From assembly GCA_021735655.1 (NCBI GenBank), contig JAIPGM010000001.1, forward strand, positions 192,001 to 256,000: DNA of 64,000 bases, given 5' to 3'. Position 1 is the stretch's first letter, and each line of letters opens with the position of its first letter. Source of the stretch: Candidatus Omnitrophota bacterium (GTDB lineage Bacteria; Omnitrophota; Gorgyraeia; Duberdicusellales; 4484-171). Both the position numbers and the translations under genes were made by a program. The notes under the pieces were generated by a model. The model had not been told where the DNA came from. It worked only from the letters and a program-made list of their open reading frames with translations, and did no database searches. Shown piece by piece: positions 16,742 to 40,843 of this stretch.

Positions 16742-16747
16742 AGTTAA

Positions 16748-17566: not shown

Positions 17567-17591
17567 ATAAGCAAAATTGTGAAAATTTAAG

Positions 17592-18464: not shown

Positions 18465-18467
18465 AGG

Positions 18468-20636: not shown

Positions 20637-20646
20637 AAATTTACAT

Positions 20647-26107: not shown

Positions 26108-26785
26108 TTGGGTTATCTTGTTGAGACGCATCAACTAACTAAAATATTTAAGCCACACAAAGGCATTGGTGAGAAGCTTAGAGGCTCAGCAGCTCGAACC
26201 GAGGTAAAGGCTGTAGATAGAGTTAGTTTTTCTTTAGAAGCAGGTTCCACCATGGCTATTATGGGTCCTAATGCTGCCGGAAAAACAACTCTTTTAAAAC
26301 TAATCGCTTCTTTAATTATTCCAACCAGTGGTCGGATTTCGGTTAAAGGTACAATTGGTTTGGTTACCGGGGAAGAGAGGAGTTTTTACTGGCGCTTGAG
26401 CGGTCAGCAGAATTTAGAGTTTTTTGCTGCTTTGTACGGTTTGGGAAAATCCGAAGCCAAGAGGCGAATCCAGCAGTTGGTTGAATTGCTGGGCATCGAG
26501 GATATGAGTGATGTTCTGGTTCAAGAGTATTCCTCGGGATACAAACAGAGGCTGGCTATTGCTAGAGGATTATTGCATGATCCGGATATCTTGCTTTTAG
26601 ATGAACCCACTAAAAATTTGGATTCTTCTCACGCTGAACATTTAAGAATTTTTATAAGAGAAAACTTAGGTAAAGAAAGCAAAAAGACAGTTATTTTTAC
26701 TAGTCATAACTTAGAGGAAGCTTCGTTTTTAGCGAATAAATTAGCAGTAATGGATAAGGGTTGCCTAAGGCAACAGGATAGTTGA
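26108..26785 (+). CDS. ABC transporter ATP-binding protein (ABC-2 exporter type)
   Basis: TTG start with AAGGAG 9 nt upstream. Walker A is GPNAAGKTT, the signature is SSGYKQRLAIARG, Walker B is LLLDEP and the H-loop is TSHN. Confidence 0.8.
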   Translation: MGYLVETHQLTKIFKPHKGIGEKLRGSAARTEVKAVDRVSFSLEAGSTMAIMGPNAAGKTTLLKLIASLIIPTSGRISVKGTIGLVTGEERSFYWRLSGQQNLEFFAALYGLGKSEAKRRIQQLVELLGIEDMSDVLVQEYSSGYKQRLAIARGLLHDPDILLLDEPTKNLDSSHAEHLRIFIRENLGKESKKTVIFTSHNLEEASFLANKLAVMDKGCLRQQDS

Positions 26786-26786
26786 T

Positions 26787-27590
26787 ATGGGAAAAATTAT
26801 AGCATTTATTAAGAAAGATTTTCAAATTTTTTTAAGTTATAAGCTATTTTTCATGTTGCGTTGGGCGGGTATTGTTATACCGGTTGTTACTTTTTATTTT
26901 ATATCTAAGTTTATCGACCAGCAGGGGAATATTGCCTTCAGCGAATATCGAGGAGGGTACTTCCCTTTTGTGGTTATAGGCTTGTCAGTATACGGCTATC
27001 TTCTTGTCTTGTTGCGTTCAGCTTCTGAAGGTATGCGGCAGGAGCAGATGTACGGAACTTTAGAGGTTATTTTTGCTACCCCGGTAAAAAGTAGTATCGT
27101 AGCAATTTCGGCAGGTTTGTGGAATAGTCTTATTGCTTTAGTTGCTATGGTGGTATGTTTGGTAACCGGAATTTTATTGTTTAAGGAGGGCATTGTTGCT
27201 TTGGATTGGTTTGCCTTATTTTTAACTTTAATTATGATTGTCGTTAATTTTTTAAGCATAGGTATATTGGCTGCTGCAGTAATAGTGGTTTGTAAAAGAG
27301 GTGATCCGATTGCTTGGTTTGCTAGTACATTCTTTGCTTTTTTTGGCGGAGTTTATTATCCAGTGAGTGTTTTGCCTAAAGGGTTTCAGAAAATATCTCA
27401 GTTTTTACCGATCACTTATGCTGTCAGGGCTTTGCGTAAAGTTATACTTGCCGGGGCAACATCTGTCGAGATAACTAACGAGTTAGTTGTGTTGTTTATT
27501 TGTGCAGTATGTTTGTTGCCTTTATCTTTAATTATTTTTAGTTATGCTGTGCGGCGAGCTAAGATGAGCGGTAGCTTATCTTATTATTAG
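26787..27590 (+). CDS. ABC-2 family exporter permease
   Basis: It has six predicted TM helices and sits immediately after its ATPase with a 1-nt gap. It has no similarity to importer permeases. Confidence 0.7.
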   Translation: MGKIIAFIKKDFQIFLSYKLFFMLRWAGIVIPVVTFYFISKFIDQQGNIAFSEYRGGYFPFVVIGLSVYGYLLVLLRSASEGMRQEQMYGTLEVIFATPVKSSIVAISAGLWNSLIALVAMVVCLVTGILLFKEGIVALDWFALFLTLIMIVVNFLSIGILAAAVIVVCKRGDPIAWFASTFFAFFGGVYYPVSVLPKGFQKISQFLPITYAVRALRKVILAGATSVEITNELVVLFICAVCLLPLSLIIFSYAVRRAKMSGSLSYY

Positions 27591-29064: not shown

Positions 29065-30204
29065 ATGAGTTGGAAAAAGCTAAATCATAAGACGGTTCCC
29101 GGCAACAAAGACTTAAACCTGACAACATGGAAATTTAGTCCGGTTTCGGGAGACAAACATGGGGTTATTTCTTTGGAGCGAATCAGAGATAAAGCAAGCA
29201 CAAAGGCAAAATCTACTCTTCTTTATTTACCGGGAACCTGGGGAAATTCTACTTTAATTGATTATCGGGAGAACTACGAGTTTCGTATTTATCTTGCTCG
29301 GAACCAGGTAGACATTTTTAGCTTAGATTATCGGACCCACAGTGCTGATATCCAAGACCAAGATAATTTATCGTTTATGGCCGATTGGACTTATGGGGTA
29401 TTTTTGGAAGATATTAAAAAAAGCGTCGATTTTATCAAGAAAATTACCAAAACAGATAAAATATTTATTGCTGGGATGAGCAGAGGTGGGACTCTGGCTT
29501 ATTATTATGCTTGTCGTAATTGGTTTAGCGATCTTGCCGGTTTGATTATCCTCGACGGCTCTCTTTGGTGGGATTATTTTTCCTTTGATCACAAAATTAC
29601 CTTAAAAGAGGCCTTAGATTCTTTTCGTATTCAGGCAGCTTTTCAAGAAGAGACAGCTTCCCGAGAACAATTAATGAATGTTGGACGGTACTCTATTAAT
29701 CTTAATTTTACTAAGCAGCTAATACAGCAAGCGATTGATAACCCCAATGCTCCTAGTCCAGTTGAGGGGCCTAAGAATTTAGCGGAATATATGGCCGAAA
29801 GGATACATAACAGTCGAGGGCCTTGCTGGGGGTCTAAAGGTATAGCTAATCTATTTGAAGGGTATAATAATATTGAAATTTTGCTAGCTTGGCTGCTGTC
29901 TAAGGATCCTTACTGGCCTATTGTTCAGATTGCTGAATCAATATCTTTGCACAGCCAAGGTATAGGGTCTTCTGAGATAACTTATGCAAATCAAATAAAT
30001 GAGGTAGATGTGCCAGTAATTGCTTTTTTCTCTCAATGGTACTATTCTTTAGATGAAAAACTAAAGGCAACAAAATATATAGGCAGTCGCGATGTTACAA
30101 CGCAGATATTAAATAACTGGGGGCATGCTGATATTCTTTTTGGTGAATATGCACATAAAAAAGTCTTTAAGCCAATGTGTAGATGGTTAAAAGAAAAGGT
30201 ATAG
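29065..30204 (+). CDS. Alpha/beta-hydrolase fold protein
   Basis: The nucleophile elbow is IFIAGMSRGGTLA (GxSxG). The C-terminus NWGHADILFG provides an acid/His region. Its function cannot be assigned. Confidence 0.6.
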   Translation: MSWKKLNHKTVPGNKDLNLTTWKFSPVSGDKHGVISLERIRDKASTKAKSTLLYLPGTWGNSTLIDYRENYEFRIYLARNQVDIFSLDYRTHSADIQDQDNLSFMADWTYGVFLEDIKKSVDFIKKITKTDKIFIAGMSRGGTLAYYYACRNWFSDLAGLIILDGSLWWDYFSFDHKITLKEALDSFRIQAAFQEETASREQLMNVGRYSINLNFTKQLIQQAIDNPNAPSPVEGPKNLAEYMAERIHNSRGPCWGSKGIANLFEGYNNIEILLAWLLSKDPYWPIVQIAESISLHSQGIGSSEITYANQINEVDVPVIAFFSQWYYSLDEKLKATKYIGSRDVTTQILNNWGHADILFGEYAHKKVFKPMCRWLKEKV

Positions 30205-30271
30205 ATGTTAAACTGTATTCATGATAAAATAGTTTTCATTTTACTGGAAAGGAAGGGATTAAGGGCAAACA

Positions 30272-31510
30272 ATGAATATATGTATATTAGGTAAATATCC
30301 TCCGATACAAGGAGGGGTTTCAACTTGCAATTATTGGTTGAGCAAGGCTTTAGGGCAACGTGGACATAAGGTTTTTGTTGTAACCAATGCTGAAGAAGCT
30401 GGTTTTGAATATAGAGAGCAGATTTATCCTTCTGATGCCCGTCAGCTTGAGCCAAAAAATGTAAGAGTATTCAGTACGCAGCCTTTGAGTAGGCGTTTTA
30501 TCCCTCAGTATCAGCCGTTTATTGCTAAGCTTGCCAGCATGGCAATAGAAATTGTGAAAAAGAATAAAATAGATGTGCTTTACTCAAATTATCTGCTTCC
30601 TTATGGGGTTGCTGGTCTTTTGGTTAAGCAAGCTACGGGTGTGCCTTGGTTTTTAGATCATGCTGGCAGTGACATTACTAATTTATTTGATGAGCCAGAG
30701 CTTAGGCCTATTTTTCTTGAGCTGTTTAAAAATGCAGATTTGGTAGTTAATTCGCCCCAGGTCAAAAGCCGGTTGGTAGATTCAGGGGTTATCCCTGAAG
30801 ATAAACTATCACCTTCTATTGGAAAGATGTCTTACACTAGGGCTCTAGACGATAGTTTTCACCCTCAAGCAAAACCTTTTGATTTAAGTGATTATTTTGA
30901 TCGGTTTAACAGACGCTTACCAGTTTTTACTTTTCTAGGAAAGATTTCTCCCCTCAAAAAAACTTTTGCCTTTGTTGAAGCTGCAGCTAAATTGCCTAAA
31001 GGTAAGTTTTATCTTTTGTTTGTTACCGAAAAAGGGCGGATGCGGATTCATTTGAGGAATTTAATAAGAGAAAAGGGTTTGTTGCCTTACACTTGCCTGT
31101 TGGATTTTAAGCCGCCTTGGCTGGTACCTTCTATCATTACCGCTTCTACGGCAGTGGTTGCCCCAGAAAGCGAAGAGACTCCTTATTTGCCTGAAGGCAC
31201 TCACGGATCCAAAATAGGTTTAGAGGCAATGCTTTGTGGGCGTTGTGCGGTAATCGGAAAAGGAATGAGTAAGAAAGCTTTTTATTATGGTTGTAAAGAT
31301 AAAGAACACTTTTTGGTGGTTGATCCTCATAATATTAATACTTTTGCTAAAAAACTTAAGCTTATTGTAGATGATCCTGGTTTAGCTTATAAAATTGGAA
31401 AAAAAGCCAGGGCTGTTTGGACTGCCAGACGGAATTTTTTTGAGGCTTCCCTAGACTTGTTTGTTAAAAATTTCAAAATAGCTATCCTAAAGAATTCATG
31501 CCTAAGGTAA
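30272..31510 (+). CDS. Glycosyltransferase, GT4-like (GT-B fold)
   Basis: The N-terminus ICILGKYPPIQGGVSTCNYWLSKALGQRGHKVFVVT resembles the Glyco_transf_4 N-domain. The C-terminal domain is divergent. Confidence 0.55.
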   Translation: MNICILGKYPPIQGGVSTCNYWLSKALGQRGHKVFVVTNAEEAGFEYREQIYPSDARQLEPKNVRVFSTQPLSRRFIPQYQPFIAKLASMAIEIVKKNKIDVLYSNYLLPYGVAGLLVKQATGVPWFLDHAGSDITNLFDEPELRPIFLELFKNADLVVNSPQVKSRLVDSGVIPEDKLSPSIGKMSYTRALDDSFHPQAKPFDLSDYFDRFNRRLPVFTFLGKISPLKKTFAFVEAAAKLPKGKFYLLFVTEKGRMRIHLRNLIREKGLLPYTCLLDFKPPWLVPSIITASTAVVAPESEETPYLPEGTHGSKIGLEAMLCGRCAVIGKGMSKKAFYYGCKDKEHFLVVDPHNINTFAKKLKLIVDDPGLAYKIGKKARAVWTARRNFFEASLDLFVKNFKIAILKNSCLR

Positions 31511-32991
31511 TACTTATAAGTATTGATGGGGCTTGTTGGCCGGCAATGAATCACTTGTTTAAGAAAGGTGATTTACCGGTTTTAAGCCGCTTAGTAGACC
31601 AAGGGGTCAGCGGGACTCTTAATAATATTAATATGCTTGAGGCTGATCTTTGGGAGATTTTTGATATATACCGAGAGTATATCAAGAAGATCCCTCGTTT
31701 AGGGAGCCATTCGGATTTATCGGATTGGTTGACTTCAATGACTGGTTTTTTACCTAAGGTTCATGGAGTTATTTCCTCAACCGAAAAAGATTCACGTGGC
31801 AGAGAAATACCAGCTTCTCGAAGGACCAGGAAACGTCCGGTAGCATGGGAGATCTTGGCAAATAAAGGCAAAACAATAGGGGTAATTGGCTGTATGGGTG
31901 ATTGGCCCCCGATAGCTTTGCCTCATTATAATGTATCTAGATTTTACAATGTTGATGATATTTATTTTCGCAAAGCTAATAAGGATGCTGACAGTGGCTG
32001 GAAGCTAAACTTAGATAATCTGCATTCCCGGTTAACTTACCCGGCTAACTTAGCAAAAGAGCTGCTTAAGTTTAAGCCGGATAGTCAAATAGAGTCATTC
32101 ATTCAGAGAGGTAAGCCTTATATTAGAGGGGCTTTGTCTTATAAATTACGCTACGATAGTTTGTATTGCCAATGGGCTAAATATCTTCTTAAACGTTTTC
32201 CTCAGCCTGATTTTTTTGCCCTTTCTTTGCATGAAATACATTCCTTGTCACATCTTTTCTGGGATTGCCTGCCTCTGGCCAAGAAAAGATTTAAGGGCGC
32301 GGTTCATCGGCGTCGACAAAAAAAGTATGGCGGGATAATTGAGGATTATTATCGTTACATTGATAAAAATATTGGCGAAGTATTGAAACTGAGCGATAGT
32401 GATTCTACGGTTATGATTCTTTCTCACTACGGCATGGTCGATTCACGAATATTTAAGAAGTACATATTTATGGATAAAATTTATCATAAATTAAATTTTT
32501 TCTTTTATGATGACGGTATTGATTGGGATCGAACCAGCGTGTATGATAATGTTAATCCTTGGGGTATATACGCTGTACGAAAGGGTTTTATCCGCGGACG
32601 CAACCCCCAAAAAATATTTTTATCTTTAAGCAGGAAAATGAAAAAGATAATCACCAATAAAGGTGAGCCTTTGTTTTTGGATATATCATTTGAAAAACAA
32701 GATAATTCATTTAAAGTAGTGCCGAATTACAAGGCCATAAACTATTCGACAAAGATATTAATCAAGGGCGAGGAGATACCAGTAAAGGAGTTAGTAGATT
32801 TTAAACCGCATTATTCTATACATAATCCTGAAGGGGTTTTCATTGTCTCAAGTCGCAAGAGACAATCTTTAAAGGTTATCAAGGATAAAGTTGATTTTTT
32901 GGACATTTTGCCTACGATTTTTTCCTTTTATGGGATAAAAAAAGATCCTAAAATGTCCGGTGAGGTATTTGTAGACAGAAAAAGGAGGTAA
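31498..32991 (+). CDS. Alkaline-phosphatase superfamily protein (type I phosphodiesterase/nucleotide pyrophosphatase-like)
   Basis: The N-terminus KVILISIDGACWPAMNHL matches the Phosphodiest (PF01663) start (metal-binding Asp in ISIDG). It has a long C-terminal extension. Confidence 0.6.
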   Translation: MPKVILISIDGACWPAMNHLFKKGDLPVLSRLVDQGVSGTLNNINMLEADLWEIFDIYREYIKKIPRLGSHSDLSDWLTSMTGFLPKVHGVISSTEKDSRGREIPASRRTRKRPVAWEILANKGKTIGVIGCMGDWPPIALPHYNVSRFYNVDDIYFRKANKDADSGWKLNLDNLHSRLTYPANLAKELLKFKPDSQIESFIQRGKPYIRGALSYKLRYDSLYCQWAKYLLKRFPQPDFFALSLHEIHSLSHLFWDCLPLAKKRFKGAVHRRRQKKYGGIIEDYYRYIDKNIGEVLKLSDSDSTVMILSHYGMVDSRIFKKYIFMDKIYHKLNFFFYDDGIDWDRTSVYDNVNPWGIYAVRKGFIRGRNPQKIFLSLSRKMKKIITNKGEPLFLDISFEKQDNSFKVVPNYKAINYSTKILIKGEEIPVKELVDFKPHYSIHNPEGVFIVSSRKRQSLKVIKDKVDFLDILPTIFSFYGIKKDPKMSGEVFVDRKRR

Positions 32992-32994
32992 GTT

Positions 32995-33288
32995 ATGAAA
33001 GCCGACCAGTTAAAGGGCAAGTGCATGACTATTAACGAAGAAATTATTTCTTGGCGAGAGATCGACAAAGAGGTAGTATTTCTTAATAAACAGGAAAAAA
33101 GTTTTTACGAATTAAACAAAACAGCTGAGATCATTTGGCGCCAGTTAGCCAAAGGCGGTAAACTGACTCAGGTAATTTCTCAGGTTCAAAAGAAATATAA
33201 GAAAGTAGGTAAGCAAGACATAGAAAGAGATGTAATTGCTTTTATTGCAGATGGAATTAAGAAAAAAATATTTATTGTTAATAAATAA
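32995..33288 (+). CDS. PqqD-family peptide chaperone / RiPP recognition element (RRE)
   Basis: It is 97 aa. VVFLNKQEKSFYELNKTAEIIWRQLAKGGKLTQVISQV...DVIAFIADGI fits the PqqD/RRE winged-helix consensus (hhLN..t...h.LN.tA..IW..L.G..t...I). RBS AAGGAGG lies at 32982-32988. Its stop overlaps the start of the rSAM/SPASM gene by 1 nt. Confidence 0.7.
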   Translation: MKADQLKGKCMTINEEIISWREIDKEVVFLNKQEKSFYELNKTAEIIWRQLAKGGKLTQVISQVQKKYKKVGKQDIERDVIAFIADGIKKKIFIVNK

Positions 33289-34442
33289 TGGCTAAGAAAA
33301 AACATTTTCTTCAAAATCCATTTTTTATTATCCAATGGCATATAACTGAACGCTGTAATTGGCAGTGTAAGCATTGCTATCAGGACAAGGCGCCGGTGCC
33401 TGAACTGCCTTTTGGCAAGCTAGAAGGGGTTCTTGGCCAATGTATGGAACTGTTTAAGACTCTAAACGTTCCCGCTAAGCAAGCTTACATGCATATAGGG
33501 GGAGGAGAGCCTTTCTTGCGGAAGGATTTTTTTAAATTCTTAAAGTTGCTGAGCGTGCATAATGATTATTTAAGAATTCAGATAATGACTAACGGCTCAT
33601 TACTTACGCAGTCGGTAGTTAAAGAATTAAAAAGAATGAAGGTGAACGCAGTGCAGGTTAGCTTAGAAGGATTTGAGCAAACTAATGATCAAATAAGAGG
33701 TCCGGGAAGTTTTAATAAGGCTTTGCGGGCTATAGAGTTGCTGATAAAGAACAAAATTTCCACCAGAGTTTCGCTTACCTTGACCAGGATGAATTTAAAC
33801 GAAATAGATGATTTAGCTGTGTATCTTAAAAGCCTCGGGGTCAGGTCTTTTGGAATCCGCAGATACTTTCCTGAAGGAGAAGGTGGGCAGCTGAAGGAGT
33901 TCATGCTTTCGCCTTTAGAAATGAAAGAGTATTATCTTAGGCGTGAGGCTTTGAAGAAAAAATTAGATGTACCGGGAAAATTTTGGGTTTCTAAAGTTTG
34001 TGAAGATGCATGCTATCTAAGCAGTCAGGATCAGTCTTGTCCAAGCTGCGGTATTACTAGAGGATGTCATCTAAATATTTTTACCAACGGCGACATTCTC
34101 GCCTGTAGGCGTTGTCCGATAGTAGTTGGTAATGTATTAAAGGATAGGTTGCTTGATGTTTACTTTTCTTCCGATACCTTGTGGGCTTTGCGGAATTTAG
34201 ATAATGTCAATCCAGAATGTAGGAAATGCACCTATTTCGATAGATGCCTCGGTGGTGCTAAGTGCGAGTCTTATTCTTATTTTAATAATCCATTTGCTCC
34301 TGATCCCCAATGTTTTAGGTTATTTACCGATCTCCCGGATCCACAGAGATATAATAGGCAGGCAGAGAAAATGGAAGTACAAAAGGTTAGTGCTTTTAAG
34401 GGAGAAAAAAAGTTTACGGATGAGATTGAAGATGTGATATAA
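33288..34442 (+). CDS. Radical SAM/SPASM-domain enzyme (peptide-modifying maturase type)
   Basis: The motif is ERCNWQCKHC at ~33354-33377. The C-terminal SPASM region has seven or more Cys (CPSCGITRGCHLNIF...CRRCP...CRKCTYFDRCLGGAKC). It is flanked by a PqqD protein and a small Cys-rich ORF. Confidence 0.85.
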   Translation: MAKKKHFLQNPFFIIQWHITERCNWQCKHCYQDKAPVPELPFGKLEGVLGQCMELFKTLNVPAKQAYMHIGGGEPFLRKDFFKFLKLLSVHNDYLRIQIMTNGSLLTQSVVKELKRMKVNAVQVSLEGFEQTNDQIRGPGSFNKALRAIELLIKNKISTRVSLTLTRMNLNEIDDLAVYLKSLGVRSFGIRRYFPEGEGGQLKEFMLSPLEMKEYYLRREALKKKLDVPGKFWVSKVCEDACYLSSQDQSCPSCGITRGCHLNIFTNGDILACRRCPIVVGNVLKDRLLDVYFSSDTLWALRNLDNVNPECRKCTYFDRCLGGAKCESYSYFNNPFAPDPQCFRLFTDLPDPQRYNRQAEKMEVQKVSAFKGEKKFTDEIEDVI

Positions 34443-34479
34443 TTATAGTGATAATATTATAGTAGACAGGAGATTAGCT

Positions 34480-34653
34480 ATGGTTAGCCATTCGAAAAAG
34501 AAAAAAGAGAAAAACCAAGACAAAATTGCCTCTTCAGTTGCTGCGTACGAAAAACCTAAGTTTAAAAAAATTAAACTGCTCGATCCCAAAGAGGCAGGCA
34601 TTGCCGGAACTACGGCTGGCTGCGGCTGCTGCGGTTGTTGCTGTTGTTGGTAA
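34480..34653 (+). CDS. Unannotated 57-aa small ORF, candidate RiPP/cofactor precursor peptide: Lys-rich leader + Cys-rich core GCGCCGCCCCW
   Basis: Absent from the ORF track because it is under 60 aa. ATG at 34480 has AGGAG 6-10 nt upstream (34469-34473). The translation is MVSHSKKKKEKNQDKIASSVAAYEKPKFKKIKLLDPKEAGIAGTTAGCGCCGCCCCW, ending in TAA at 34651-34653. It lies 38 nt after the rSAM/SPASM gene and 16 nt before the kinase gene, on the same strand. Confidence 0.6.
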   Translation: MVSHSKKKKEKNQDKIASSVAAYEKPKFKKIKLLDPKEAGIAGTTAGCGCCGCCCCW

Positions 34654-34668
34654 TTTTCTAACTTTTGT

Positions 34669-35559
34669 ATGAGTAAATACTACAATGTAGGTTACCCTCT
34701 TGCAGGAGATTGTCGTGGAGTTATCCAAATACGTACTAAAAGTAAATACCTGTGGGACCTCTTGTGTGGTAAATATGCTATGCTTTTTGGCCGTAAGGCC
34801 TTAAGTGGAAACAATGCTATCCGACGAGATTTTTTCATAGATTTTAATTTTATCTCTGATTATCAAGGTTTAGCCAAAAAAAACAAATCTAAATCTTTAG
34901 ATTTTTCTTGCCAGTTTGATAAAAAGTCAATAATTTATAACTTGGTTACCCCTAGGGGGTCCTCATTGGAAATAAACTATTTTAAGCGTTACGCCCAAGT
35001 GGGCTTGATTGAAAAAGATCCGATGATAACTTACTTTGTTGACAGGATGATTCTTTTTACCTATTCGTTAGCTAGAATGTTTATGGTCCATGGTGCTTGG
35101 GTAAAAAGAGGTAAATCTTCATTTTTTCTCATTGGTCGCAGTGGGGTAGGTAAAACAACCATAAGTTCTTTGTTAACCAATCAAAGTAAAGATTACAAAC
35201 TTATGGATGATGACAGTCCGTTTATTTTTCAGGCTGATGACACTTTGTTTGCTGCCTCCAGAGATCAGCGGCTAGTTGAATATTCACCAAATTATTTGTT
35301 TTTTATATCGAAGAAACCGCGCTTAAAGAGTGAAGCCTGCCCTTTAAGTTCTAAAGAGTCATTTAAGAGGTTAATTGAACACTCAGACGTAATTTTTAGA
35401 AAAAATGACCCGATGACCGATTATCGTTTGGATGTCTTAAGGAAATTGGCAATGCGTTGTAAATCATATCTATTGATTAACGGCAAAGATTTGATTGGTA
35501 GCAAAGTTTTGGCTTCTACTTTATTTAATGGTATTATCAAAAGGAGAAAAAATGCGTAG
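34669..35559 (+). CDS. HprK-related serine kinase (HPr kinase C-terminal-domain-like P-loop kinase)
   Basis: SSFFLIGRSGVGKTTISSLLTNQSKDYKLMDDDSPFI is comparable to the HprK/P block vLitGdSGvGKSE..LeLi.rGhrLvaDD (P-loop plus the downstream DD). It has no N-terminal HprK domain, so it resembles the stand-alone HprK-related kinases seen in RiPP clusters. Confidence 0.7.
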   Translation: MSKYYNVGYPLAGDCRGVIQIRTKSKYLWDLLCGKYAMLFGRKALSGNNAIRRDFFIDFNFISDYQGLAKKNKSKSLDFSCQFDKKSIIYNLVTPRGSSLEINYFKRYAQVGLIEKDPMITYFVDRMILFTYSLARMFMVHGAWVKRGKSSFFLIGRSGVGKTTISSLLTNQSKDYKLMDDDSPFIFQADDTLFAASRDQRLVEYSPNYLFFISKKPRLKSEACPLSSKESFKRLIEHSDVIFRKNDPMTDYRLDVLRKLAMRCKSYLLINGKDLIGSKVLASTLFNGIIKRRKNA

Positions 35560-36277
35560 TAAAATTATGTTTTATTTAGGGTTAGCGGTATTTAGTATGC
35601 TTGTTAATATAACAGTGTTCGGTGCAGATATTTCATATCAGGATTTGGTTCAGAGTGCTAAAGATAATTTTGCTTACCAGGTTTCAAATATAAAAAGTAT
35701 TGAGTATAAAGTAGTGGTTTCTGATATTGATGCTGAAACTATTTTATATATAGATGTTTGGGCGAAGTCCCCGGGGAGAGTTAAGGTGAAGCGTTTGGAT
35801 GTTCGTCCTGAGGCAAGCGATGATGGTGAATTCATTTTTGATAAAGGCAAAAGTTGGTCTAATTCTTCGATGGTTCCGGTAGAGATGTATATGGGGATGG
35901 TCGAGCAAGCTTTGTCTGGTGACCTAAGAGGTGGGGCGGTTCTAGAAGAGGAGAGCGGCCTAAGAGAAGTTTCTGGTACAACATATGCAGTAGCTACTTT
36001 ATTGTTTTTCGGAAAGTGTAAGGTAAAGGCATATTATAAGATACCTGATTCCCGCCGACCGGATAAATACGAAGTATTTTTGCTTCAGGGAGATAATTGG
36101 AACAAGTTAATGGATCTAAAACCACAGGATTACCAGGAGGTTGAAGGATCAGTATTTCCCCGCAGGACTGTCCAAACTCTTTATGAGCCCGAAGGCCAAG
36201 AGGAAAGGGTTATGGAGTTTTACAAAATAAAGGTTAATCAGGAAATAGATGACAGTATTTTTCAGATTCCTCAATAA
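35552..36277 (+). CDS. Secreted protein of unknown function (Sec signal peptide)
   Basis: The ATG at 35552 has AAGGAG at 35541-35546. The ORF-track start 35495 lies inside the kinase gene. MRSKIMFYLGLAVFSMLVNITVFGADIS has an n-region, h-region and AxA-like cleavage site. Confidence 0.5.
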   Translation: MRSKIMFYLGLAVFSMLVNITVFGADISYQDLVQSAKDNFAYQVSNIKSIEYKVVVSDIDAETILYIDVWAKSPGRVKVKRLDVRPEASDDGEFIFDKGKSWSNSSMVPVEMYMGMVEQALSGDLRGGAVLEEESGLREVSGTTYAVATLLFFGKCKVKAYYKIPDSRRPDKYEVFLLQGDNWNKLMDLKPQDYQEVEGSVFPRRTVQTLYEPEGQEERVMEFYKIKVNQEIDDSIFQIPQ

Positions 36278-36345
36278 ATTTTCTTAACTGCATAGATAGG
36301 ATTTTGTTTATAGCATTATCCTTTTTTTACGTCTTGCCTTTTAAA

Positions 36346-37149
36346 ATGAAGAAAAACTATACAGTATCATTTATCGAAAGCGACAGTATGTGGCCGGTCT
36401 TGAGGCCTTCAGATAAGGTATTGATTAAGGCAGTATCTTCTGCTTCGTTAAGAGTAGGAGATATTATTGTTTATCGGAAAAAAGAATTTTCGGTTGCCCA
36501 CCGGATTGTCCGAGTAGTTAATAATAAGGGGTTTTCCACTTATTGGACCAGAGGTGACTTTAATTATAAGCTCGATCAGGTTTCTACTGAAAATATAATT
36601 GGTAAAATAGCTGGAGTTTATCGTGATGGCCACCTAAAGCCAGTAAGAGGTCCTGGGTGCTGCTGGCTGTTTTTTATTGTGTTTTTAGGGAAAGAGGCTT
36701 CAACCAGGGTTTTGGAAGGAATATATTCTCTTGGGTTTTTTCGTAGTTGGATTAAAAGATTGTTTCCTTTAAAGGTTTCTTATGTCGTGGTGGGGGACAT
36801 AAAAAGCAATGATGATTTTAAAAGCTTTTATCATCGGTCATTTGATTCTTTATGTGAAGGTGGAACTCAGACAGGAATTATGGCTTTGTTTAAGGGTAAG
36901 CCCATAGGTAAACTTTGGATTTTAATTGACAAAGAAGGCAGCTTTTTTTTCTATGGTCCTTATGTAAGGTTGCTTTACCGTGTGAGGGGAGTTGCTGGAG
37001 GATTGATTAAGCAAGCTGTGTGCTATCTTGAAGGCTCTGGTTTAAAAAGGTCTAAAGTGTATGCTTTTACAGGAGGTAGCCGAATCCTGCTCAACTGCTT
37101 TAGCCGAGAGGAAATAGAAGCTAGAGGAGATTTTCCAGATAAACTTTAG
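36346..37149 (+). CDS. ER/SipW-type signal-peptidase-like (S26B) domain fused to a ~150-aa C-terminal domain of unknown function
   Basis: ESDSMWPVLRPSDKVLIK contains the catalytic-Ser box SMxP. GDIIVYRKK...VAHRIVRV is a box-D equivalent with His in place of the bacterial Lys, as in archaeal/ER-type and SipW enzymes. The start is uncertain; a TTG at 36304 is also possible. Confidence 0.5.
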   Translation: MKKNYTVSFIESDSMWPVLRPSDKVLIKAVSSASLRVGDIIVYRKKEFSVAHRIVRVVNNKGFSTYWTRGDFNYKLDQVSTENIIGKIAGVYRDGHLKPVRGPGCCWLFFIVFLGKEASTRVLEGIYSLGFFRSWIKRLFPLKVSYVVVGDIKSNDDFKSFYHRSFDSLCEGGTQTGIMALFKGKPIGKLWILIDKEGSFFFYGPYVRLLYRVRGVAGGLIKQAVCYLEGSGLKRSKVYAFTGGSRILLNCFSREEIEARGDFPDKL

Positions 37150-37160
37150 AAGAATTAAAA

Positions 37161-38594
37161 ATGGAACAATTTGACTGTGTTTTAATCCATCATTCCGGGC
37201 CGGGCCCTAATGCTAAGCATATTGCTCCTAATGTCTCGATGGGTGTATTTGCTTTGGCAGATATTTTGCAGAGAAACGGCTACAGGACTGAAATAATTCA
37301 TTTAGGCATAGAAGAATATCTTGATAATAGTTTTTCTTTGGCCAGATATTTAAGAGTTAAAAAGCCATTATTGGTTGGAGTTACTTTGCATTGGCATTTA
37401 CAATGCTCTAAAACCGTAGGCTTAGTTAGAAGTATAAAAAAAATAGTTCCTGGCGTTAAAGTTATTTTAGGAGGTTATACGGCAAGCTTTTTTGCCGATC
37501 AAATAATGCCTGAAGTTAAGGAAGTTGATTTTATTATTAGAGGTGATGCTGAGAAACCTCTGCTGGAGTTGATGCGACAGTTAAAAGACGGCCATTTTGA
37601 CTTAAGTTCTGTGCCGAATCTTACTTGGCGTAGAGCCAAAAAGGTAATACATAACAAGCAGAGTTATGTAGCAAAAAAGGAGGATCTTGATCAGTTAAAT
37701 TTCTCTAATTTTAAACTTATGAAAAATAGTCAGTTTTATTTAGGTTCATTAGCTAAAATTTACCAGTCAGTGCAGGATACAGAAACATACAATCTTCTTA
37801 AACTGAATCCTTTTTATCTTTCTGTTGGTCGAGGCTGTCGGTTTAATTGTCTGTTTTGCGGTGGATCGGCAATGGCGCAGAAATTAATTAACAACCGAAA
37901 TAATTTAGTTTTTCGTTCTTCCAAAAAAGTCATCTCTACCATTAAAGACGCTTTTCGAGAAGGAGTAGATACTTTTTGTATTTGTTTTGATCCTAATCTT
38001 GACAAATCTTATTATTTTGATTTATTTCAGTCTATCCGCAAAAATAGAATAAAAATTTCAATGATGTTTGATTGTTGGTCTTTGCCATCATTTGAGTTCA
38101 TTGATGCATTTGCTAAGACTTTTCAAGATGGAAAACATAGTAGCTTAGCCTTATCTCCAGAAACCGGTTCTGAGCGCTTACGAAAAAAGTATAAAGGTTC
38201 ATTCCATACTAACCAGGAATACTTTGAGGTATTTCGTTATTTACGGGCAAAAGGCATAAAATGTGTTGTGCAGTTTGGCTATATATTTCCGGGTGAAAGC
38301 ATGGTAGATTTTAAGAAGACTAGTGACTTCATTGAAACCACCAATGAAATTTTTAAAGGACGAGTGCTTGTAATTATAAATAAATGCGTGATTGACCCGG
38401 CTTCTTTGTTTTATATGTTTCCGAAAAAGTATAAAATAACCAGAAAAGCGGTTAGCTTCTCTGATTATTGTAGATTAGATCCCTGGAAGAGCTATTCTTT
38501 TTTTCCCGCCCAGCAAAAGAAAATGAAAGCTGTTTTAAAGATGTGGCAAAAGGTTGAGGCTCTTCAGTTATTGGATATTGCTGATCCGATCTGA
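37161..38594 (+). CDS. B12-binding radical SAM (class B) enzyme
   Basis: The N-terminal B12-binding-like region is CVLIHHSGPGPNAKHIAPNVSMGVFALADILQRNGYRTEIIHLG. The rSAM motif is SVGRGCRFNCLFCGG (~37830-37860). Confidence 0.75.
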   Translation: MEQFDCVLIHHSGPGPNAKHIAPNVSMGVFALADILQRNGYRTEIIHLGIEEYLDNSFSLARYLRVKKPLLVGVTLHWHLQCSKTVGLVRSIKKIVPGVKVILGGYTASFFADQIMPEVKEVDFIIRGDAEKPLLELMRQLKDGHFDLSSVPNLTWRRAKKVIHNKQSYVAKKEDLDQLNFSNFKLMKNSQFYLGSLAKIYQSVQDTETYNLLKLNPFYLSVGRGCRFNCLFCGGSAMAQKLINNRNNLVFRSSKKVISTIKDAFREGVDTFCICFDPNLDKSYYFDLFQSIRKNRIKISMMFDCWSLPSFEFIDAFAKTFQDGKHSSLALSPETGSERLRKKYKGSFHTNQEYFEVFRYLRAKGIKCVVQFGYIFPGESMVDFKKTSDFIETTNEIFKGRVLVIINKCVIDPASLFYMFPKKYKITRKAVSFSDYCRLDPWKSYSFFPAQQKKMKAVLKMWQKVEALQLLDIADPI

Positions 38595-38613: not shown

Positions 38614-39774
38614 TTAAAAAATCATCTTGAAAATGTGTTTTATAAGTCTATAGGGTATATAGAAAATTCTTAGGTGGTATTTTCTAGCTGTTGTTACACA
38701 ACGTTGGGGCAGAGAATAATACTTAGCAAATTGTTCCTGTGGTACGGTTAAAATGTATTTTAAGGGGTAGCTTATGGTGTCGTAATAGATAAATTGACAG
38801 AGGGTGTAGATATAAGGTAGATTTTCCATTCTTACTGGGGTGTAGGTAAAGCGCTGCACGATAGAAGATATTAAATATTTTTGCCAACCAGGCACTTTAA
38901 GTTTTTTCAGGAAAAATTTAAGGTCGACATCCAAAACGAATTGCATTTGATATAATAGAAGGTAGAGGCTTGCTTTGGCTTTTTCTTGTTCAGCTGCCTT
39001 TAAGATATATTCCCAGTTAAGATTTTCCTCTTTTAGGATAATCCCCAAGTCACAAATGTATTTTAAATTAAGTATTTTTCCGAACCGTCGCTGATGTAAG
39101 GCAAGGCTTAGAATAGTGTCTTCGGCGCTTAAAGCTCTAAAGGAGTATCCTGGGCCTTGGATTAGGCGCAGGCGATTCCATGCATCAGGCAATACTTTTT
39201 GCTTAAAGCGATTGCAATCTAAAGCCCAGTGCAGTTCGACTAGTGTAGCTTGGCCATTAGTTTCTTTAGTGAAAGAGAGGTGACATTGGTGCTTTCGCCA
39301 GTAAGCTTCGTCAGATCCGAGAAATTCCTTTTTATAGCCCATGGCCAGAAGAAGAAAAGTTGCTTTTTCAAAGTTTTTTTCAGTGGTGAACAGGTCTATG
39401 TCTGATGAAGGACGTATCCCAAAATGCTTGTAGTATTTATCAGGCAAAGAAAAGCCCTTAATCGGAATAATTAGGGTATCGGATTTTTCCGCTTCTTTGA
39501 GTATATTTGATAATTCAATACATAGATTTTCATGGTTAAAAATTTTTAAGCAATAAAACTTTTTATAAAGTTGTTCAAAGCCTTTCGGTATCGGGTATGA
39601 ATTTTCTTTAAGTATAACCTGAAGAAAGTGAGGTAGCTCATGGTAAAAAATAGCATAACCTAGGTTTTTTCCGTGTATGTTTTCTGCTTTGAGGCTTTTT
39701 AGGAGTAGATCACGTTGGTTTCCATAGACTATTTCCTTCGCTAGGTATTTGATTATTTTTTCTTCAGTTTTCAT
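38614..39774 (-). CDS. Nucleotidyltransferase-fold protein (minimal NTase / NTP_transf_5-like)
   Basis: GIRPSSDIDLFTTEKNFEKATFLLLAMGY matches the G[SG]x9-13DhD NTase signature (SDIDL). The ORF track extends to 39882 but would overlap the upstream rSAM gene by 86 nt. The internal start MKTEEK at 39774 is preferred, though it lacks a clear RBS. Confidence 0.5.
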   Translation of the reverse strand: MKTEEKIIKYLAKEIVYGNQRDLLLKSLKAENIHGKNLGYAIFYHELPHFLQVILKENSYPIPKGFEQLYKKFYCLKIFNHENLCIELSNILKEAEKSDTLIIPIKGFSLPDKYYKHFGIRPSSDIDLFTTEKNFEKATFLLLAMGYKKEFLGSDEAYWRKHQCHLSFTKETNGQATLVELHWALDCNRFKQKVLPDAWNRLRLIQGPGYSFRALSAEDTILSLALHQRRFGKILNLKYICDLGIILKEENLNWEYILKAAEQEKAKASLYLLLYQMQFVLDVDLKFFLKKLKVPGWQKYLISSIVQRFTYTPVRMENLPYIYTLCQFIYYDTISYPLKYILTVPQEQFAKYYSLPQRCVTTARKYHLRIFYIPYRLIKHIFKMIF

Positions 39775-39796
39775 CTTGTAGTAATTAAACTTAGTA

Positions 39797-40843
39797 TTAT
39801 AAAAATAAAGGATAAATGGTTTTGCCCGGGCATTCTTCCGGACAGGATTTTCCTTTACGAAAGGTCCGGTATTTTTCTCCATACCATATATCCTTAAAAG
39901 ATAACTTATTTATATTTCCGAGTGATTTTTTTTCGGCATAAACACAACCTAAGACTTCACCTTCTAAAGTTATAACTGATTGAACCCAAGACAGATAGCA
40001 GGGTTTTTGTTTAGTCTGGCTTTGAATTTTCTGAGGTATTTTGTTACCACTGGCAAAATTTAAGAAACTTTTAATATTGTTGGGAATTTTTATCTTACTG
40101 GAAATGCTTGAGATTTTTTCCACGAATTCTTCCTGCTCAGACTCCGGAGGAATAAGTCTTTTATTTAGTTCCGGAGTCATAAGTAGAGGTTTAAACAGCA
40201 GCTTATCTGCCGATAATTTCTGGCTAAGAGCGATCATCTCGGCAGCATTGTGGTAATTAAGATTAGATATTACGTTTACCAGAAACAAGAGAGGGTATCG
40301 TTTTTTGCCTTTTAGGGACTTTATCAGGAAGAGATTGTTTAATAAAGTATTGAAATCTTTTTTGTTTCTGGAGGGCCTGATCCTTTGGAAAGTTTCAGCA
40401 TCCGCGCAATGAAGACTTACCAGAATTTTTTTTACACCCTTTTCTATTAGCTTGGCTATATTAGTTTTATCAAGATAAAAGGCATTGGTCATTAGCTCAA
40501 CATTGATTTTTTGCTCACCGGCTATGCTTATAAGTTTAAACAGATCGGGATGCATTAGTGGTTCACCTTCTCCGGTAAATAAAATAGTGTTTACCTGAAG
40601 GGTTTTTAATTGCTTAACCAGGGCAGAAAATGTATCACAGGAGATATGCTGATCCGGTTTTTTTTTGGATATCGCCCCTGAATGATACCAACACATTTCG
40701 CAAGCCATGTCGCATTTATTGGTTATATCAAGAGTTATCTTAAGCGGTCCGGTAAAAGCTCTGCTTCGGGAAAGTATTCCTAGGAGGCGGAGCATATTGT
40801 GAGAATTTGAAAGATAGTGTAGATTGTTTTTTAACGAAAACAT
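39797..40843 (-). CDS. Radical SAM enzyme with SPASM/twitch-like C-terminal Cys cluster (same family as 12887/17592/62098)
   Basis: The motif is NKCDMACEMC (~40690-40730 on the - strand). The C-terminus is KPCYLSWVQSVITLEGEVLGCVYAEKKSLGNINKLSFKDIW...KSCPEECPG. Confidence 0.8.
   Translation of the reverse strand: MFSLKNNLHYLSNSHNMLRLLGILSRSRAFTGPLKITLDITNKCDMACEMCWYHSGAISKKKPDQHISCDTFSALVKQLKTLQVNTILFTGEGEPLMHPDLFKLISIAGEQKINVELMTNAFYLDKTNIAKLIEKGVKKILVSLHCADAETFQRIRPSRNKKDFNTLLNNLFLIKSLKGKKRYPLLFLVNVISNLNYHNAAEMIALSQKLSADKLLFKPLLMTPELNKRLIPPESEQEEFVEKISSISSKIKIPNNIKSFLNFASGNKIPQKIQSQTKQKPCYLSWVQSVITLEGEVLGCVYAEKKSLGNINKLSFKDIWYGEKYRTFRKGKSCPEECPGKTIYPLFL

Follow-up and report, generated by a model that had tools for sequence, protein, structure and literature searches.

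A Cys-rich candidate RiPP precursor gene among LPP-type and radical SAM/SPASM enzymes in an Omnitrophota contig

A poly-cysteine precursor gene and its family

The locus lies in a 64,000-nucleotide stretch of a Candidatus Omnitrophota contig (JAIPGM010000001.1), referred to as the window. A small plus-strand gene at 34480..34653, with its ATG at 34480 and its stop codon at 34651-34653, encodes the 57-residue peptide MVSHSKKKKEKNQDKIASSVAAYEKPKFKKIKLLDPKEAGIAGTTAGCGCCGCCCCW. As the sequence-only reading of this DNA had described, the 57-codon ORF is preceded by a Shine-Dalgarno-like AGGAG (34468..34472, + strand), 7 nt upstream of the ATG. The same reading had called the ORF unannotated; GenBank holds the exact sequence as MCF7907322.1, ‘hypothetical protein K9L86_00375’, from a 341-kb contig of a Candidatus Omnitrophica MAG. 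The next gene begins 15 nt 3' of the stop codon, which places the precursor ORF within a same-strand operon. Three overlapping weak -35/-10 matches were found just 5' of the peptide gene by promoter scanning, a count not above shuffled expectation.

The peptide combines a Lys-rich leader, with 12 Lys in its first 38 residues (a count previously given as 14), and the C-terminus GCGCCGCCCCW, in which seven of the last 10 residues are Cys. The Cys codons of the core mix TGC and TGT and are broken up by GGC/GGT. Tandem Repeats Finder detects a weak period-9 repeat in the core DNA (TGCGGTTGT x3.2, score 37); this aside, the earlier view that the core is no simple microsatellite holds, and it looks as if it was built up through short duplications. 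Such a repeat could be taken as a sign that low-complexity (KGY)n DNA has produced a spurious ORF here and that the rSAM/PqqD pair encoded upstream acts on something else. The remaining frames of the core DNA, which read as poly-Ala/Val, and an antisense 64-aa ORF overlapping the precursor region would fit this view.

Conservation argues otherwise. The ortholog P0128 (locus L161) is 95% identical and differs by four synonymous and three non-synonymous codons. All three changes within the Gly/Cys core are synonymous, a pattern consistent with purifying selection on the core, and the non-synonymous ones all fall in the N-terminal leader, ahead of a YEKP motif kept in the same frame behind the ribosome-binding site and ATG. 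On this near-identical contig, what lies 5' of the peptide gene is DNA other than the rSAM gene, a point against the pathway proposed below. At least 13 related peptides adjoin orthologous PqqD and rSAM/SPASM genes at other metagenomic loci, and in over 12 loci a homologous peptide encoded by quite different DNA lies beside an rSAM ortholog. A lack of such conservation of the ORF or its context had been named beforehand as grounds for abandoning the proposal; the ortholog and the related peptides show that both are conserved.

A motif scan of 1.48 Mb (the window and related loci) for Y[EQK]xP with the first Cys 14-36 residues later and a Cys within the last 8 residues returned 21 ORFs, compared with none in reversed and 2-4 in shuffled sequences. 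Of these ORFs, 19 lie on the strand of the rSAM homolog, most of them no more than about 2.5 kb from that homolog. When 1.84 billion cluster representatives were searched with a profile of the precursor family, 214 matched at E≤1e-3. No Pfam or NCBIfam model matches the precursors, the NCBIfam search having covered 11 family peptides at E≤10 with HMMER filters that may drop very weak matches. Because the core changes in the ortholog are exclusively synonymous and at least 13 relatives lie beside PqqD and rSAM/SPASM genes, the comparative sequence evidence identifies the ORF as a genuine RiPP precursor peptide gene, and a spurious reading frame is scarcely credible.

Members of the family share a Y-x-x-P-x-hydrophobic leader motif and a hypervariable Cys/Gly/Ser/Ala core with 1 to 13 Cys. 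Alignment of the 13 close members shows the leader Tyr in 12 and the Pro in all 13, with the Cys core starting 20-25 residues after Y-x-x-P. In 12 of the 13, the residues at -1/-3 are small and a Ser/Thr lies at most six residues before the first Cys. In the window peptide, the motif Y23-E-K-P-K-F-K-K-I31 (34546..34572, + strand) fits [Y/W]xxPx[L/V/I/F/A] and is the putative PqqD/RRE binding site. The core region defined by the family alignment, T44-T45-A-G-C-G-C-C-G-C-C-C-C-W57 (34609..34650, + strand), contains T44/T45 as candidate phosphorylation sites, small residues before C48 as a candidate leader-cleavage site, and seven Cys as candidate rSAM targets. The phosphorylation and cleavage assignments are modelled on LppA, the precursor of linear polyphosphorylated peptides (LPPs), which is cleaved and then polyphosphorylated on core Ser3 (PMC13381572).

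Recognition element, radical SAM enzymes and associated genes

A discrete PqqD-family RiPP recognition element (RRE) of 97 aa is encoded at 32995..33288 (+ strand; PF05402, 43.4 bits, cut-off 23.4); among NCBIfam models, the lasso PqqD chaperone matches it best. Orthologs occur in L001, L081-L086, L099, L117, L120, L125 and L162-L165, and Asn41 and Asp79 are kept in those compared. The adjacent gene (33288..34442, + strand; PF04055) encodes radical SAM/SPASM enzyme 1 (rSAM-1, 384 aa), the presumed core-modifying maturase. Its CxxxCxxC motif (C23/C27/C30) and eight C-terminal Cys are all invariant. With the 38-sequence rSAM alignment, generic SPASM patterns saturated the scan of genome contigs, which gave two close loci only; a tighter alignment was used on metagenome contigs. 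The proposal that the peptide is the substrate of the neighbouring rSAM/SPASM and PqqD proteins is well supported and very likely correct, since many loci, despite varying gene order, combine a homologous precursor with orthologs of both proteins.

The same rSAM clade is paired with Cys-rich tails even where PqqD is missing. L109-L114 carry C[RK]QCSSCHxCR peptides, and signal-anchored proteins with Cys-rich C-termini are found in L090, L092, L094, L096, L098, L108 and L116.

The reaction of rSAM-1 is less readily assigned. Its best NCBIfam match is TIGR04340 rSAM_ACGX (168.9 bits), below the cut-off of 400, and the enzyme matches no NCBIfam maturase family above its curated cut-off. In a Foldseek comparison of its AF2 model (pLDDT 85) with PDB structures, SkfB, anSME, PqqE, SuiB, CteB and ChlB matched almost equally well. 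The fold search is therefore uninformative on the reaction, as thioether synthases are inseparable from anSME, PqqE and SuiB.

The second-best NCBIfam match of rSAM-1, at 134 bits, is the thio(seleno)oxazole maturase SbtM. Together with the extreme Cys density of the core and its CxxC/CGC spacings, typical of metal sites, this match would suit a thiol-rich metal- or cluster-binding peptide resembling a metallothionein or chalkophore. Its Cys would stay free or become another kind of ligand (a thiooxazole as made by SbtM, or a thiazoline where YcaO is present), and the rSAM enzyme would install something other than a thioether. Both L165 and L085 do have a ThiF/YcaO enzyme beside the cassette, which in L163 and L164 lies directly 3' of Fur, rubrerythrin, NifU and desulfoferrodoxin genes. 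However, YcaO is missing from the window and most loci, the L163 neighbourhood represents a single organism, and the conserved cassette includes no metal transporter or chaperone. Furthermore, cores with one or two Cys (L162, L083, L084, L099) could form no multi-thiolate site. A metal-binding product is thus judged unlikely. Separately, TOMM-type heterocyclisation was ruled out, YcaO being found in L165 and L085 only.

Two additional radical SAM enzymes are encoded nearby. The B12-binding enzyme (477 aa; 37161..38594, + strand; PF02310 and PF04055) is TIGR04190-like at 192 bits, below cut-off, and is probably a methyltransferase-type tailoring enzyme. Similar genes occur in L162, L087, L097 and L105; its membership of the peptide cluster is uncertain. 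Radical SAM/SPASM enzyme 2 (348 aa; 39797..40843, - strand; PF04055 and PF13186) has orthologs with 41% identity in L001 and L083. It lies next to an NTP_transf_5 nucleotidyltransferase (422 aa; 38614..39882, - strand; PF14907, 105 bits), homologs of which are present in L099, L162, L163, L165, L086, L120 and L001. In L165, the two are fused as one 760-aa protein, which indicates a functional link between them.

The gene 15 nt downstream of the precursor encodes a P-loop kinase of 296 aa (34669..35559, + strand) with the Walker A motif GRSGVGKTT. All eight family members compared match TIGR04352 HprK_rel_A (best E 1.6e-11) and four of the eight match ScmC; the window protein alone matches weakly (E 0.004), and all family scores are below the curated cut-off. 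A PDB profile search matched HPr kinases at E ~2e-4, and a homologous-protein search with the window protein returned the query itself only. With a pLDDT of 32, a single-sequence AlphaFold model was of no use, and the HprK-like assignment is based on the HMM matches. The gene is kept beside the rSAM gene in at least 10 loci.

The kinase gene is followed by a gene for a secreted LolA-like protein (35552..36277, + strand; weak PF17131 match), which has an N-terminal signal-like sequence and homologs in L082, L162 and L163. [quoted passage not shown] The ORF was listed from TTG at 36304, and the ATG at 36346 is the likelier start. The protease carries SDSMWP and AHRIV motifs, and its homologs in L162, L163, L099, L083 and L085 are without an N-terminal membrane anchor. 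By analogy, it is the presumed leader peptidase. The suggestion that AG/TTAG ahead of the core is a cleavage or kinase site fits both the HprK-like gene immediately downstream and the protease two genes further on, as well as the family pattern of small -1/-3 residues and Ser/Thr before the first Cys.

Upstream, the most conserved gene of the cassette encodes a GT4 glycosyltransferase (412 aa; 30272..31510, + strand; Pfam GT4 and GT1 domains), with 58-69% identity in L001, L082 and L083 and 30-43% in L086, L104, L107, L085, L090, L096 and L098. It remains near the rSAM gene across loci although gene order varies. It is followed by a gene for a cytoplasmic phosphodiesterase-like protein of the alkaline phosphatase superfamily (AlkP-like, 497 aa; 31498..32991, + strand; PF01663, E 1.3e-16), with 42-50% identity in L081, L082, L083, L117 and L125. 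Both genes could belong to the surrounding glycan locus instead of the peptide pathway. A pairing of the AlkP-like protein with an rSAM enzyme as an anaerobic sulfatase and its maturase was ruled out, as the protein matches a phosphodiesterase family and has DGACWPAM in place of C/S-x-P-x-R.

An ABC-2 type transporter, ATPase and permease (26108..27590, + strand; PF00005 and PF01061), is a possible exporter whose cluster membership is uncertain; homologous pairs are found in L001, L163 and L165. Two genes were left out of the cluster: a HemW-like rSAM gene at 27598-28944 (- strand), whose product scores at the HemW family cut-off, and an alpha/beta hydrolase gene at 29065-30204, which has no counterpart in related loci. 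Every locus is set among GT4, GT2, PMT_2, Wzy and ABC-2 genes.

Relation to LPPs and other RiPP systems

The closest parallel is provided by the LPPs, reported in 2026 (Nat Commun) as a Bacillota-restricted system of the genes LppA/B/K/S/N/D, in a text that makes no mention of rSAM enzymes (PMC13381572). The LPP core comprises a signal peptidase I (SpI), an RRE, an HprK-like kinase and an NTP transferase; the supplement equates the ‘putative NTP transferase’ with NTP_transf_5, that is LppN, and TIGR02228 corresponds to the leader peptidase LppS (PMC13381572). YxxP is indispensable for RRE binding in LPP as well as lasso systems, SpI cleavage in LPPs depends on the RRE, and the clusters sit in glycosyltransferase-rich loci (PMC13381572). 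The window cluster shares with LPPs the discrete PqqD-type RRE, the HprK-like kinase, the TIGR02228 peptidase and NTP_transf_5. Also in common are a YxxPx-hydrophobic motif in a conserved leader, a hypervariable C-terminus, a hydroxyl residue soon after the presumed cleavage site, and surroundings rich in glycosyltransferase and polysaccharide genes.

The two systems also differ in several respects. The window cluster is found in Omnitrophota, LPPs in Bacillota. Unlike LPPs as described, it includes two rSAM/SPASM enzymes and a B12-rSAM enzyme, its S26 peptidase is fused to a GNAT-like domain, the GT4 and AlkP-like enzymes are conserved parts of the cassette, and the cores of its family are short and Cys/Gly/Ser/Ala-rich. 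Within the LPP leader consensus YxxPxVLxHQxIxFETxxS, YEKPKF fits the YxxPx[LVIFA] part, whereas the window peptide lacks HQxIxFET. The Thr/Ser lies 21-24 residues after the leader Tyr in the window family and 18 after it in the LPP consensus. The window peptide and that of L082 have Thr ahead of the core where LPPs have Ser; the kinase LppK rejected a Ser3Thr substrate (PMC13381572). For export, the ABC-2 pair contrasts with the MsbA-like pump of LPPs, and a scan of the cluster genes at 23.8-45.1 kb turned up nothing of the MsbA type. The best reading is that the window cluster is an rSAM-containing variant of the LPP system. LPPs are linear peptides with polyphosphorylated Ser, and the presence of rSAM/SPASM enzymes argues against a simply linear product here.

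Lasso clusters of the paeninodin/pseudomycoidin type share the YxxPx-hydrophobic leader, the discrete PqqD (B1) and the kinase/NTase pair with the window cluster. In these clusters, an HPr-kinase homolog and a nucleotidyltransferase phosphorylate and glycosylate a Ser (PMC8498205). Neither a lasso cyclase (Asn-synthase-like) nor a B2 transglutaminase-like peptidase domain was found among the genes at 23.8-45.1 kb; the rSAM enzymes and S26 peptidase stand in their place.

Similarly, sactipeptide and ranthipeptide systems, with SkfB, CteB/SCIFF, PapB and StsB as examples, resemble the window cluster in having an rSAM enzyme with a full SPASM Cys set, an RRE and a Cys-containing core. SkfB and CteB rank high among the matches of rSAM-1 by sequence and fold, and StsB, which forms Cys-to-Gly sactionines, offers a Cys-Gly precedent (PMC10288494). 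In contrast, the RRE of the window is a separate protein and not fused to the rSAM enzyme. The core is up to 70% Cys with no obvious acceptor pattern, and the set of kinase, NTP transferase and SpI peptidase is foreign to these classes. Against curated thioether-synthase HMMs, rSAM-1 scores well below cut-off (PapB 67 against 340, StsB 73 against 625), and SkfB is not among the top matches.

Three bioinformatically predicted, uncharacterised NCBIfam/TIGRFAM systems also show likenesses. Besides rSAM_ACGX being the best HMM of rSAM-1, some cores of the family are literally ACGX-like (L001: CGACVGCGSCACGSCGCAGCS); the ACGX-repeat peptide model gave no match to 11 family peptides at E≤10, with HMMER filters that may drop very weak matches. 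GeoRSP (TIGR04303/TIGR04352) and SynChlorMet (ScmC/D/E/F) resemble the window cluster in their trio of HprK-related kinase, PqqD and rSAM/SPASM enzyme. On window proteins, the GeoRSP models score 130 against 400 (TIGR04303, rSAM) and 16 against 200 (TIGR04352, kinase). A literature search for ACGX, GeoRSP, SynChlorMet, HPr kinase with PqqD and radical SAM, and Cys-rich rSAM RiPPs found nothing relevant.

Comparison with mycofactocin and PQQ raises another possibility, in which the C-terminal aromatic residue is the key site. Here rSAM-1 would act like MftC or PqqE on the terminal Trp, or on the Tyr or Phe of relatives. Oxidative decarboxylation or cross-linking of this residue, perhaps with the Cys beside it, would yield an aminovinyl-type cap or a peptide-derived redox cofactor, and the run of Cys would serve as a spacer or metal ligand. 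MftC is among the better NCBIfam matches of rSAM-1 (120 bits), PqqE is among its top folds, and the PqqA leader likewise has a W-x-K-P-x-F/Y motif. Seven of the 13 close members end in W, Y or F, five of these with a Cys directly before the aromatic residue (CCW, CSCY, SACF, SSCY, TGCF), and the shortest core, ...GVSSCY of L162, has its single Cys beside the terminal Tyr. Yet the other six members end in S, A or V and a large sister family ends in ...CHGCR, unlike MftA with its conserved C-terminal Tyr and PqqA with its Glu/Tyr pair. All mycofactocin/PQQ models are below cut-off (MftC 120 against 265, PqqE 68 against 381, PqqD 27 against 46), the MftC and PqqE scores falling far short and also being below that of the ACGX family; accessory genes of both pathways are absent. 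A Cys number that ranges from 1 to 13 is, furthermore, hard to square with a cofactor, and modification centred on the terminal aromatic residue seems improbable.

A proposed pathway and its significance

The sequence comparisons establish the gene and that it is conserved, together with the set of genes conserved around it and the domains they encode. The locus probably encodes a RiPP pathway in which an LPP-type core of RRE, HprK-like kinase, SpI-like peptidase and NTP_transf_5 is combined with rSAM/SPASM chemistry on a hypervariable Cys-rich core. By analogy with LPPs and lasso peptides, the stand-alone PqqD would bind Y23-E-K-P-K-F28 and hand the peptide to its partner enzymes. The HprK-like kinase would then phosphorylate hydroxyls just before the Cys run, on Thr44/Thr45 here and on Ser in most relatives, and NTP_transf_5, GT4 and the AlkP-like enzyme may decorate the phosphate.

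In a third step, rSAM-1, perhaps with rSAM/SPASM enzyme 2 and the B12-rSAM enzyme, would modify the cysteines. This is the weakest step, suggested by the enzyme class and by the constant pairing of the rSAM clade with Cys-rich tails. The leading guess for its chemistry is the formation of radical S-C thioethers of the sactionine/ranthionine type, for example to the adjacent Gly C-alpha. With nothing but Cys, Gly and a single Trp, the core has few of the usual acceptors for a thioether, which counts against a thioether step.

Again following the LPP and lasso models, the cytoplasmic S26 (SipW-type) peptidase would cleave after small residues ahead of the core, and the GNAT-like domain fused to it may add an acetyl group to the N-terminus so exposed. 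Finally, the ABC-2 transporter would export the product.

More tentatively, the locus may represent a new RiPP class of Omnitrophota and neighbouring uncultivated lineages, in which an LPP-type pathway of phosphorylation, nucleotidyl/glycosyl transfer and SpI cleavage has merged with rSAM chemistry on a hypervariable poly-Cys core. The product would then be a densely S-C-bridged phospho-glycopeptide or carry undescribed Cys modifications. On this reading, the glycan-gene setting of every locus suggests that the peptide could be a primer or anchor of a cell-surface glycoconjugate and no free antibiotic.

LPPs as described are confined to Bacillota (PMC13381572). In the window, an LPP-type core of recognition protein, kinase, peptidase and nucleotidyltransferase turns up in a phylum both distant and uncultivated, where it is coupled to rSAM/SPASM enzymes. 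The precursor family, for which Pfam and NCBIfam have no model, spans cores of one to thirteen Cys. For heterologous expression, some 13 natural variants of the substrate and some 10 orthologous clusters form a ready resource. As a substrate for radical enzymes, a core that is 70% Cys is out of the ordinary, and its characterisation could reveal new Cys chemistry or the purpose of LPP-type machinery.

The precursor gene and its family

The precursor gene (34480-34653, + strand) opens with an ATG at 34480, 7 nt downstream of an AGGAG, and runs for 57 codons to a stop at 34651-34653, as the sequence-only reading had described it. Its translation is MVSHSKKKKEKNQDKIASSVAAYEKPKFKKIKLLDPKEAGIAGTTAGCGCCGCCCCW. 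The gene lies inside a same-strand gene run (29065-38594), and the next gene starts 15 nt past its stop. The tail carries seven Cys and the leader 12 Lys, correcting an earlier count of 14. The ORF had also been called unannotated; an identical protein is already in GenBank (MCF7907322.1, 'hypothetical protein'), encoded on a 341-kb contig of a Candidatus Omnitrophica MAG. In the DNA of the Cys/Gly core (34613-34649), TGCGGTTGT recurs 3.2 times as a weak tandem repeat of period 9, which suggests that the core DNA may have grown by short duplications and fits expansion and contraction of a Cys-Gly-Cys unit as the possible origin of core-length variation in the family.

Conservation of the ORF and its context in relatives, on which the sequence-only reading had staked its interpretation, was found by searching loci that contain homologs of the neighbouring radical SAM gene (rSAM-1, an rSAM/SPASM gene at 33288-34442, + strand). 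Small ORFs there share a Lys-rich N-terminus, a Y-x-x-P-x-hydrophobic motif, ∼20-25 further residues and a C-terminus rich in Cys, Gly, Ser and Ala. The 95%-identical ortholog P0128, from locus L161 of another sample, differs at seven codons: four changes are synonymous, three of these within the Gly/Cys core, and the three non-synonymous changes all fall in the N-terminal leader ahead of the YEKP motif. Core endings at other related loci are SSCGACVGCGSCACGSCGCAGCS (L001), TTGCCGCGCGCGCGGY (L082), ASSGGGGCSCY (L083), SGACSACF (L084), SCSSCASCTSCA (L086 and L120), QSCALCV (L099), GACSSCGTGTA (L104), GVSSCY (L162), ...GCSTGCF and ...CSVCGIPS (two genes in L163) and ...GGACACSSSW (L165). Among the 13 close members aligned, the window peptide included, seven end in W, Y or F; this would suit MftC- or PqqE-like chemistry at a C-terminal aromatic residue, a reading made improbable by the six members that end otherwise.

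A formal scan for the motif plus a Cys tail returned 21 ORFs in 1.48 Mb, against none in reversed and 2-4 in shuffled sequence, and a spurious ORF is effectively excluded. No peptide of the family matched any Pfam or NCBIfam model. A profile searched against 1.84 billion cluster representatives gave 214 matches (50% identity clusters) at E<=1e-3, most of them a sister family of 40-60-aa peptides with the pattern YEKPxIxKxxxMxFP...C[RK]QCSSCHGCR (L109-L114, P0131-P0291), likewise covered by no Pfam or NCBIfam model. Next to the sister-family genes are those for an rSAM/SPASM of 35% identity and for a metallo-beta-lactamase-domain protein of 1121 aa, and no PqqD gene can be seen at L109-L114.

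The surrounding cassette

In the window, genes for a GT4 glycosyltransferase (30272), an AlkP-superfamily phosphodiesterase-like protein (31498), PqqD (32995) and rSAM-1 precede the precursor; an HprK-like P-loop protein (34669), a secreted LolA-like protein (∼35552), an S26 peptidase (36304-37149) and a B12-rSAM (37161) follow, all on the + strand. NTP_transf_5 (38614-39882) and a second rSAM/SPASM, rSAM-2 (39797-40843), lie on the - strand. The S26 peptidase matches TIGR02228 (archaeal-type signal peptidase I) with a score above the curated threshold and has a C-terminal GNAT-like domain, an extension of ∼150 aa that in homologs weakly resembles GNAT (Acetyltransf_1). It is probably cytoplasmic, because its homologs are without an N-terminal membrane anchor. 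Accessory proteins of GeoRSP and SynChlorMet are further matches of the HprK-like family. Upstream, 10524-23805 is dense in radical SAM genes, whose products are an rSAM protein of 788 aa, one of 1284 aa made of three tandem rSAM/SPASM modules (12887-16741), a 290-aa rSAM/SPASM, a 722-aa B12-rSAM and a protein of 1052 aa that combines one B12 domain with two rSAM domains. This stretch also encodes a methyltransferase and an ABC-ATPase protein of 1155 aa; the window holds ∼12 rSAM domains, cluster included.

By tblastn, GT4, AlkP-like, PqqD, rSAM, HprK-like, S26 peptidase, NTP_transf_5, rSAM-2 and ABC-2 transporter genes recur around rSAM orthologs in varying order. In L165 (5364-7646), a single 760-aa protein joins NTP_transf_5, Radical_SAM and SPASM domains, the counterpart of the window's minus-strand pair, which implies that NTP_transf_5 and rSAM-2 would work together. 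Recurrence in differing orders together with this fusion argues for functional linkage over chance adjacency. Comparative genomics supports the main proposal of the sequence-only reading, namely that the adjoining rSAM and PqqD have this peptide as their substrate. In both window and relatives the set sits among GT1, GT2, PMT_2, Wzy-type and ABC-2 genes, and the GT4 and AlkP-like genes may belong to this glycan locus instead.

Some loci vary. In L161 (1-1352, compared with window 34438), agreement with the window begins only at the rSAM stop codon; upstream of that point the contig has a Toprim-like gene and an ORF of 80 aa where the window has rSAM-1, a difference that rearrangement, mobile insertion or chimeric assembly could explain. 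A class I methyltransferase-domain protein of 538 aa, absent from the window, lies between rSAM and precursor in three of the closest loci (L162 9123-10739, L082 6107-7645, L081 1665-2261). A ThiF/YcaO fusion joins the cassette in L165 (11067-13433) and in L085 (2138-4369), where PqqD is also present twice; the fusion suggests that some family members may acquire azolines. Genes for Fur, rubrerythrin, a NifU-like protein and desulfoferrodoxin lie directly upstream of PqqD-rSAM-precursor in L163 (5278-7177; also L164), a possible hint, from one organism only, of a redox or metal link.

Radical SAM chemistry

rSAM-1 carries CxxxCxxC (C23, C27 and C30), and its eight C-terminal Cys are invariant. 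Its NCBIfam scores, for ACGX (uncharacterised; 169 bits), SbtM (134), GeoRSP (130) and MftC (120), all fall far under the curated cut-offs, and in a fold search its confident AF2 model (pLDDT 85) is about equally similar to SkfB, anSME, PqqE, SuiB and CteB. Homology therefore does not reveal the reaction. Resemblance to SbtM, YcaO in two loci and the Fur/rubrerythrin/NifU neighbours of one organism would agree with a free-thiol or heterocycle-based metal binder, which is nonetheless unlikely.

The comparative argument for the cysteines as rSAM targets is that this clade adjoins Cys-rich tails even at loci that lack the genes for PqqD, the kinase and the peptidase. CxxCxxCxxC peptides stand beside the rSAM in L109-L114, and signal-anchored proteins with Cys-rich ends do so in L090/L098 (710-1087), L092/L108, L094 (1804-2253), L096 (177-491, -) and L116 (4677-4934, -). 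The latter have 84-149 aa, carry a signal or membrane anchor at the N-terminus, contain an AxA-like site and have tails of SSCH repeats, CSxNTC repeats (CSTNTC), ...CGCGCGCGCD or ...CGCGCGCF; their genes are often also next to GT4. The rSAM homologs beside the signal-anchored proteins show 40-47% identity, and PqqD was not detected there. Cys-to-Gly sactionines have a precedent in StsB (PMC10288494).

Relation to polyphosphorylated peptides

Linear Polyphosphorylated Peptides (LPP), defined in 2026, have as core genes those for a signal peptidase I of SipW type (TIGR02228), a stand-alone PqqD RRE, an HprK-like kinase, NTP_transf_5 and a pump resembling MsbA, and their clusters sit within polysaccharide loci (PMC13381572). 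Their precursors follow YxxPxVLxHQxIxFET|xxS; RRE binding requires the YxxP motif, peptidase cleavage requires the RRE, and several phosphates are placed on core Ser3 (PMC13381572). Four of these five core domains recur in the window cluster, as does the YxxPx-hydrophobic motif. Asn41 and Asp79 of its PqqD, conserved in the orthologs compared, are spaced by 38, close to the 37 between Asn33 and Asp70 of the LPP RRE LppB, which contact the leader Pro and Tyr (PMC13381572), a correspondence inferred without an alignment. Also present are small residues and a hydroxyl residue directly ahead of the Cys run: Ser or Thr lies within six residues of the first Cys in 12 of the 13 members, as T44/T45 in the window peptide and Ser in most relatives. 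The window system differs in its rSAM enzymes and Cys-rich cores, and the window peptide has Thr in place of Ser; the kinase LppK rejected a Ser3Thr substrate (PMC13381572). An HPr-kinase homolog and a nucleotidyltransferase, a pair also present in the window, phosphorylate and glycosylate Ser in paeninodin-/pseudomycoidin-type lasso clusters (PMC8498205).

What is shown is the gene with its conservation, the make-up of the cassette and the identity of the domains; every chemical step of the route proposed here is inferred. PqqD would bind YEKPKF and present the peptide, the kinase would phosphorylate T44/T45, and rSAM-1 would modify the Cys run, with thioether formation the favoured outcome at somewhat less than an even chance. 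NTP_transf_5, rSAM-2, GT4 and the AlkP-like enzyme may add further decoration; the cytoplasmic S26 peptidase would cut off the leader after the small residues, and the product would be exported. The paper describing LPP confines them to Bacillota and makes no mention of radical SAM enzymes (PMC13381572). The best description of the window system is a variant LPP-type RiPP pathway that contains rSAM enzymes, one lying outside Bacillota and equipped with an unmodelled, hypervariable poly-Cys precursor family.
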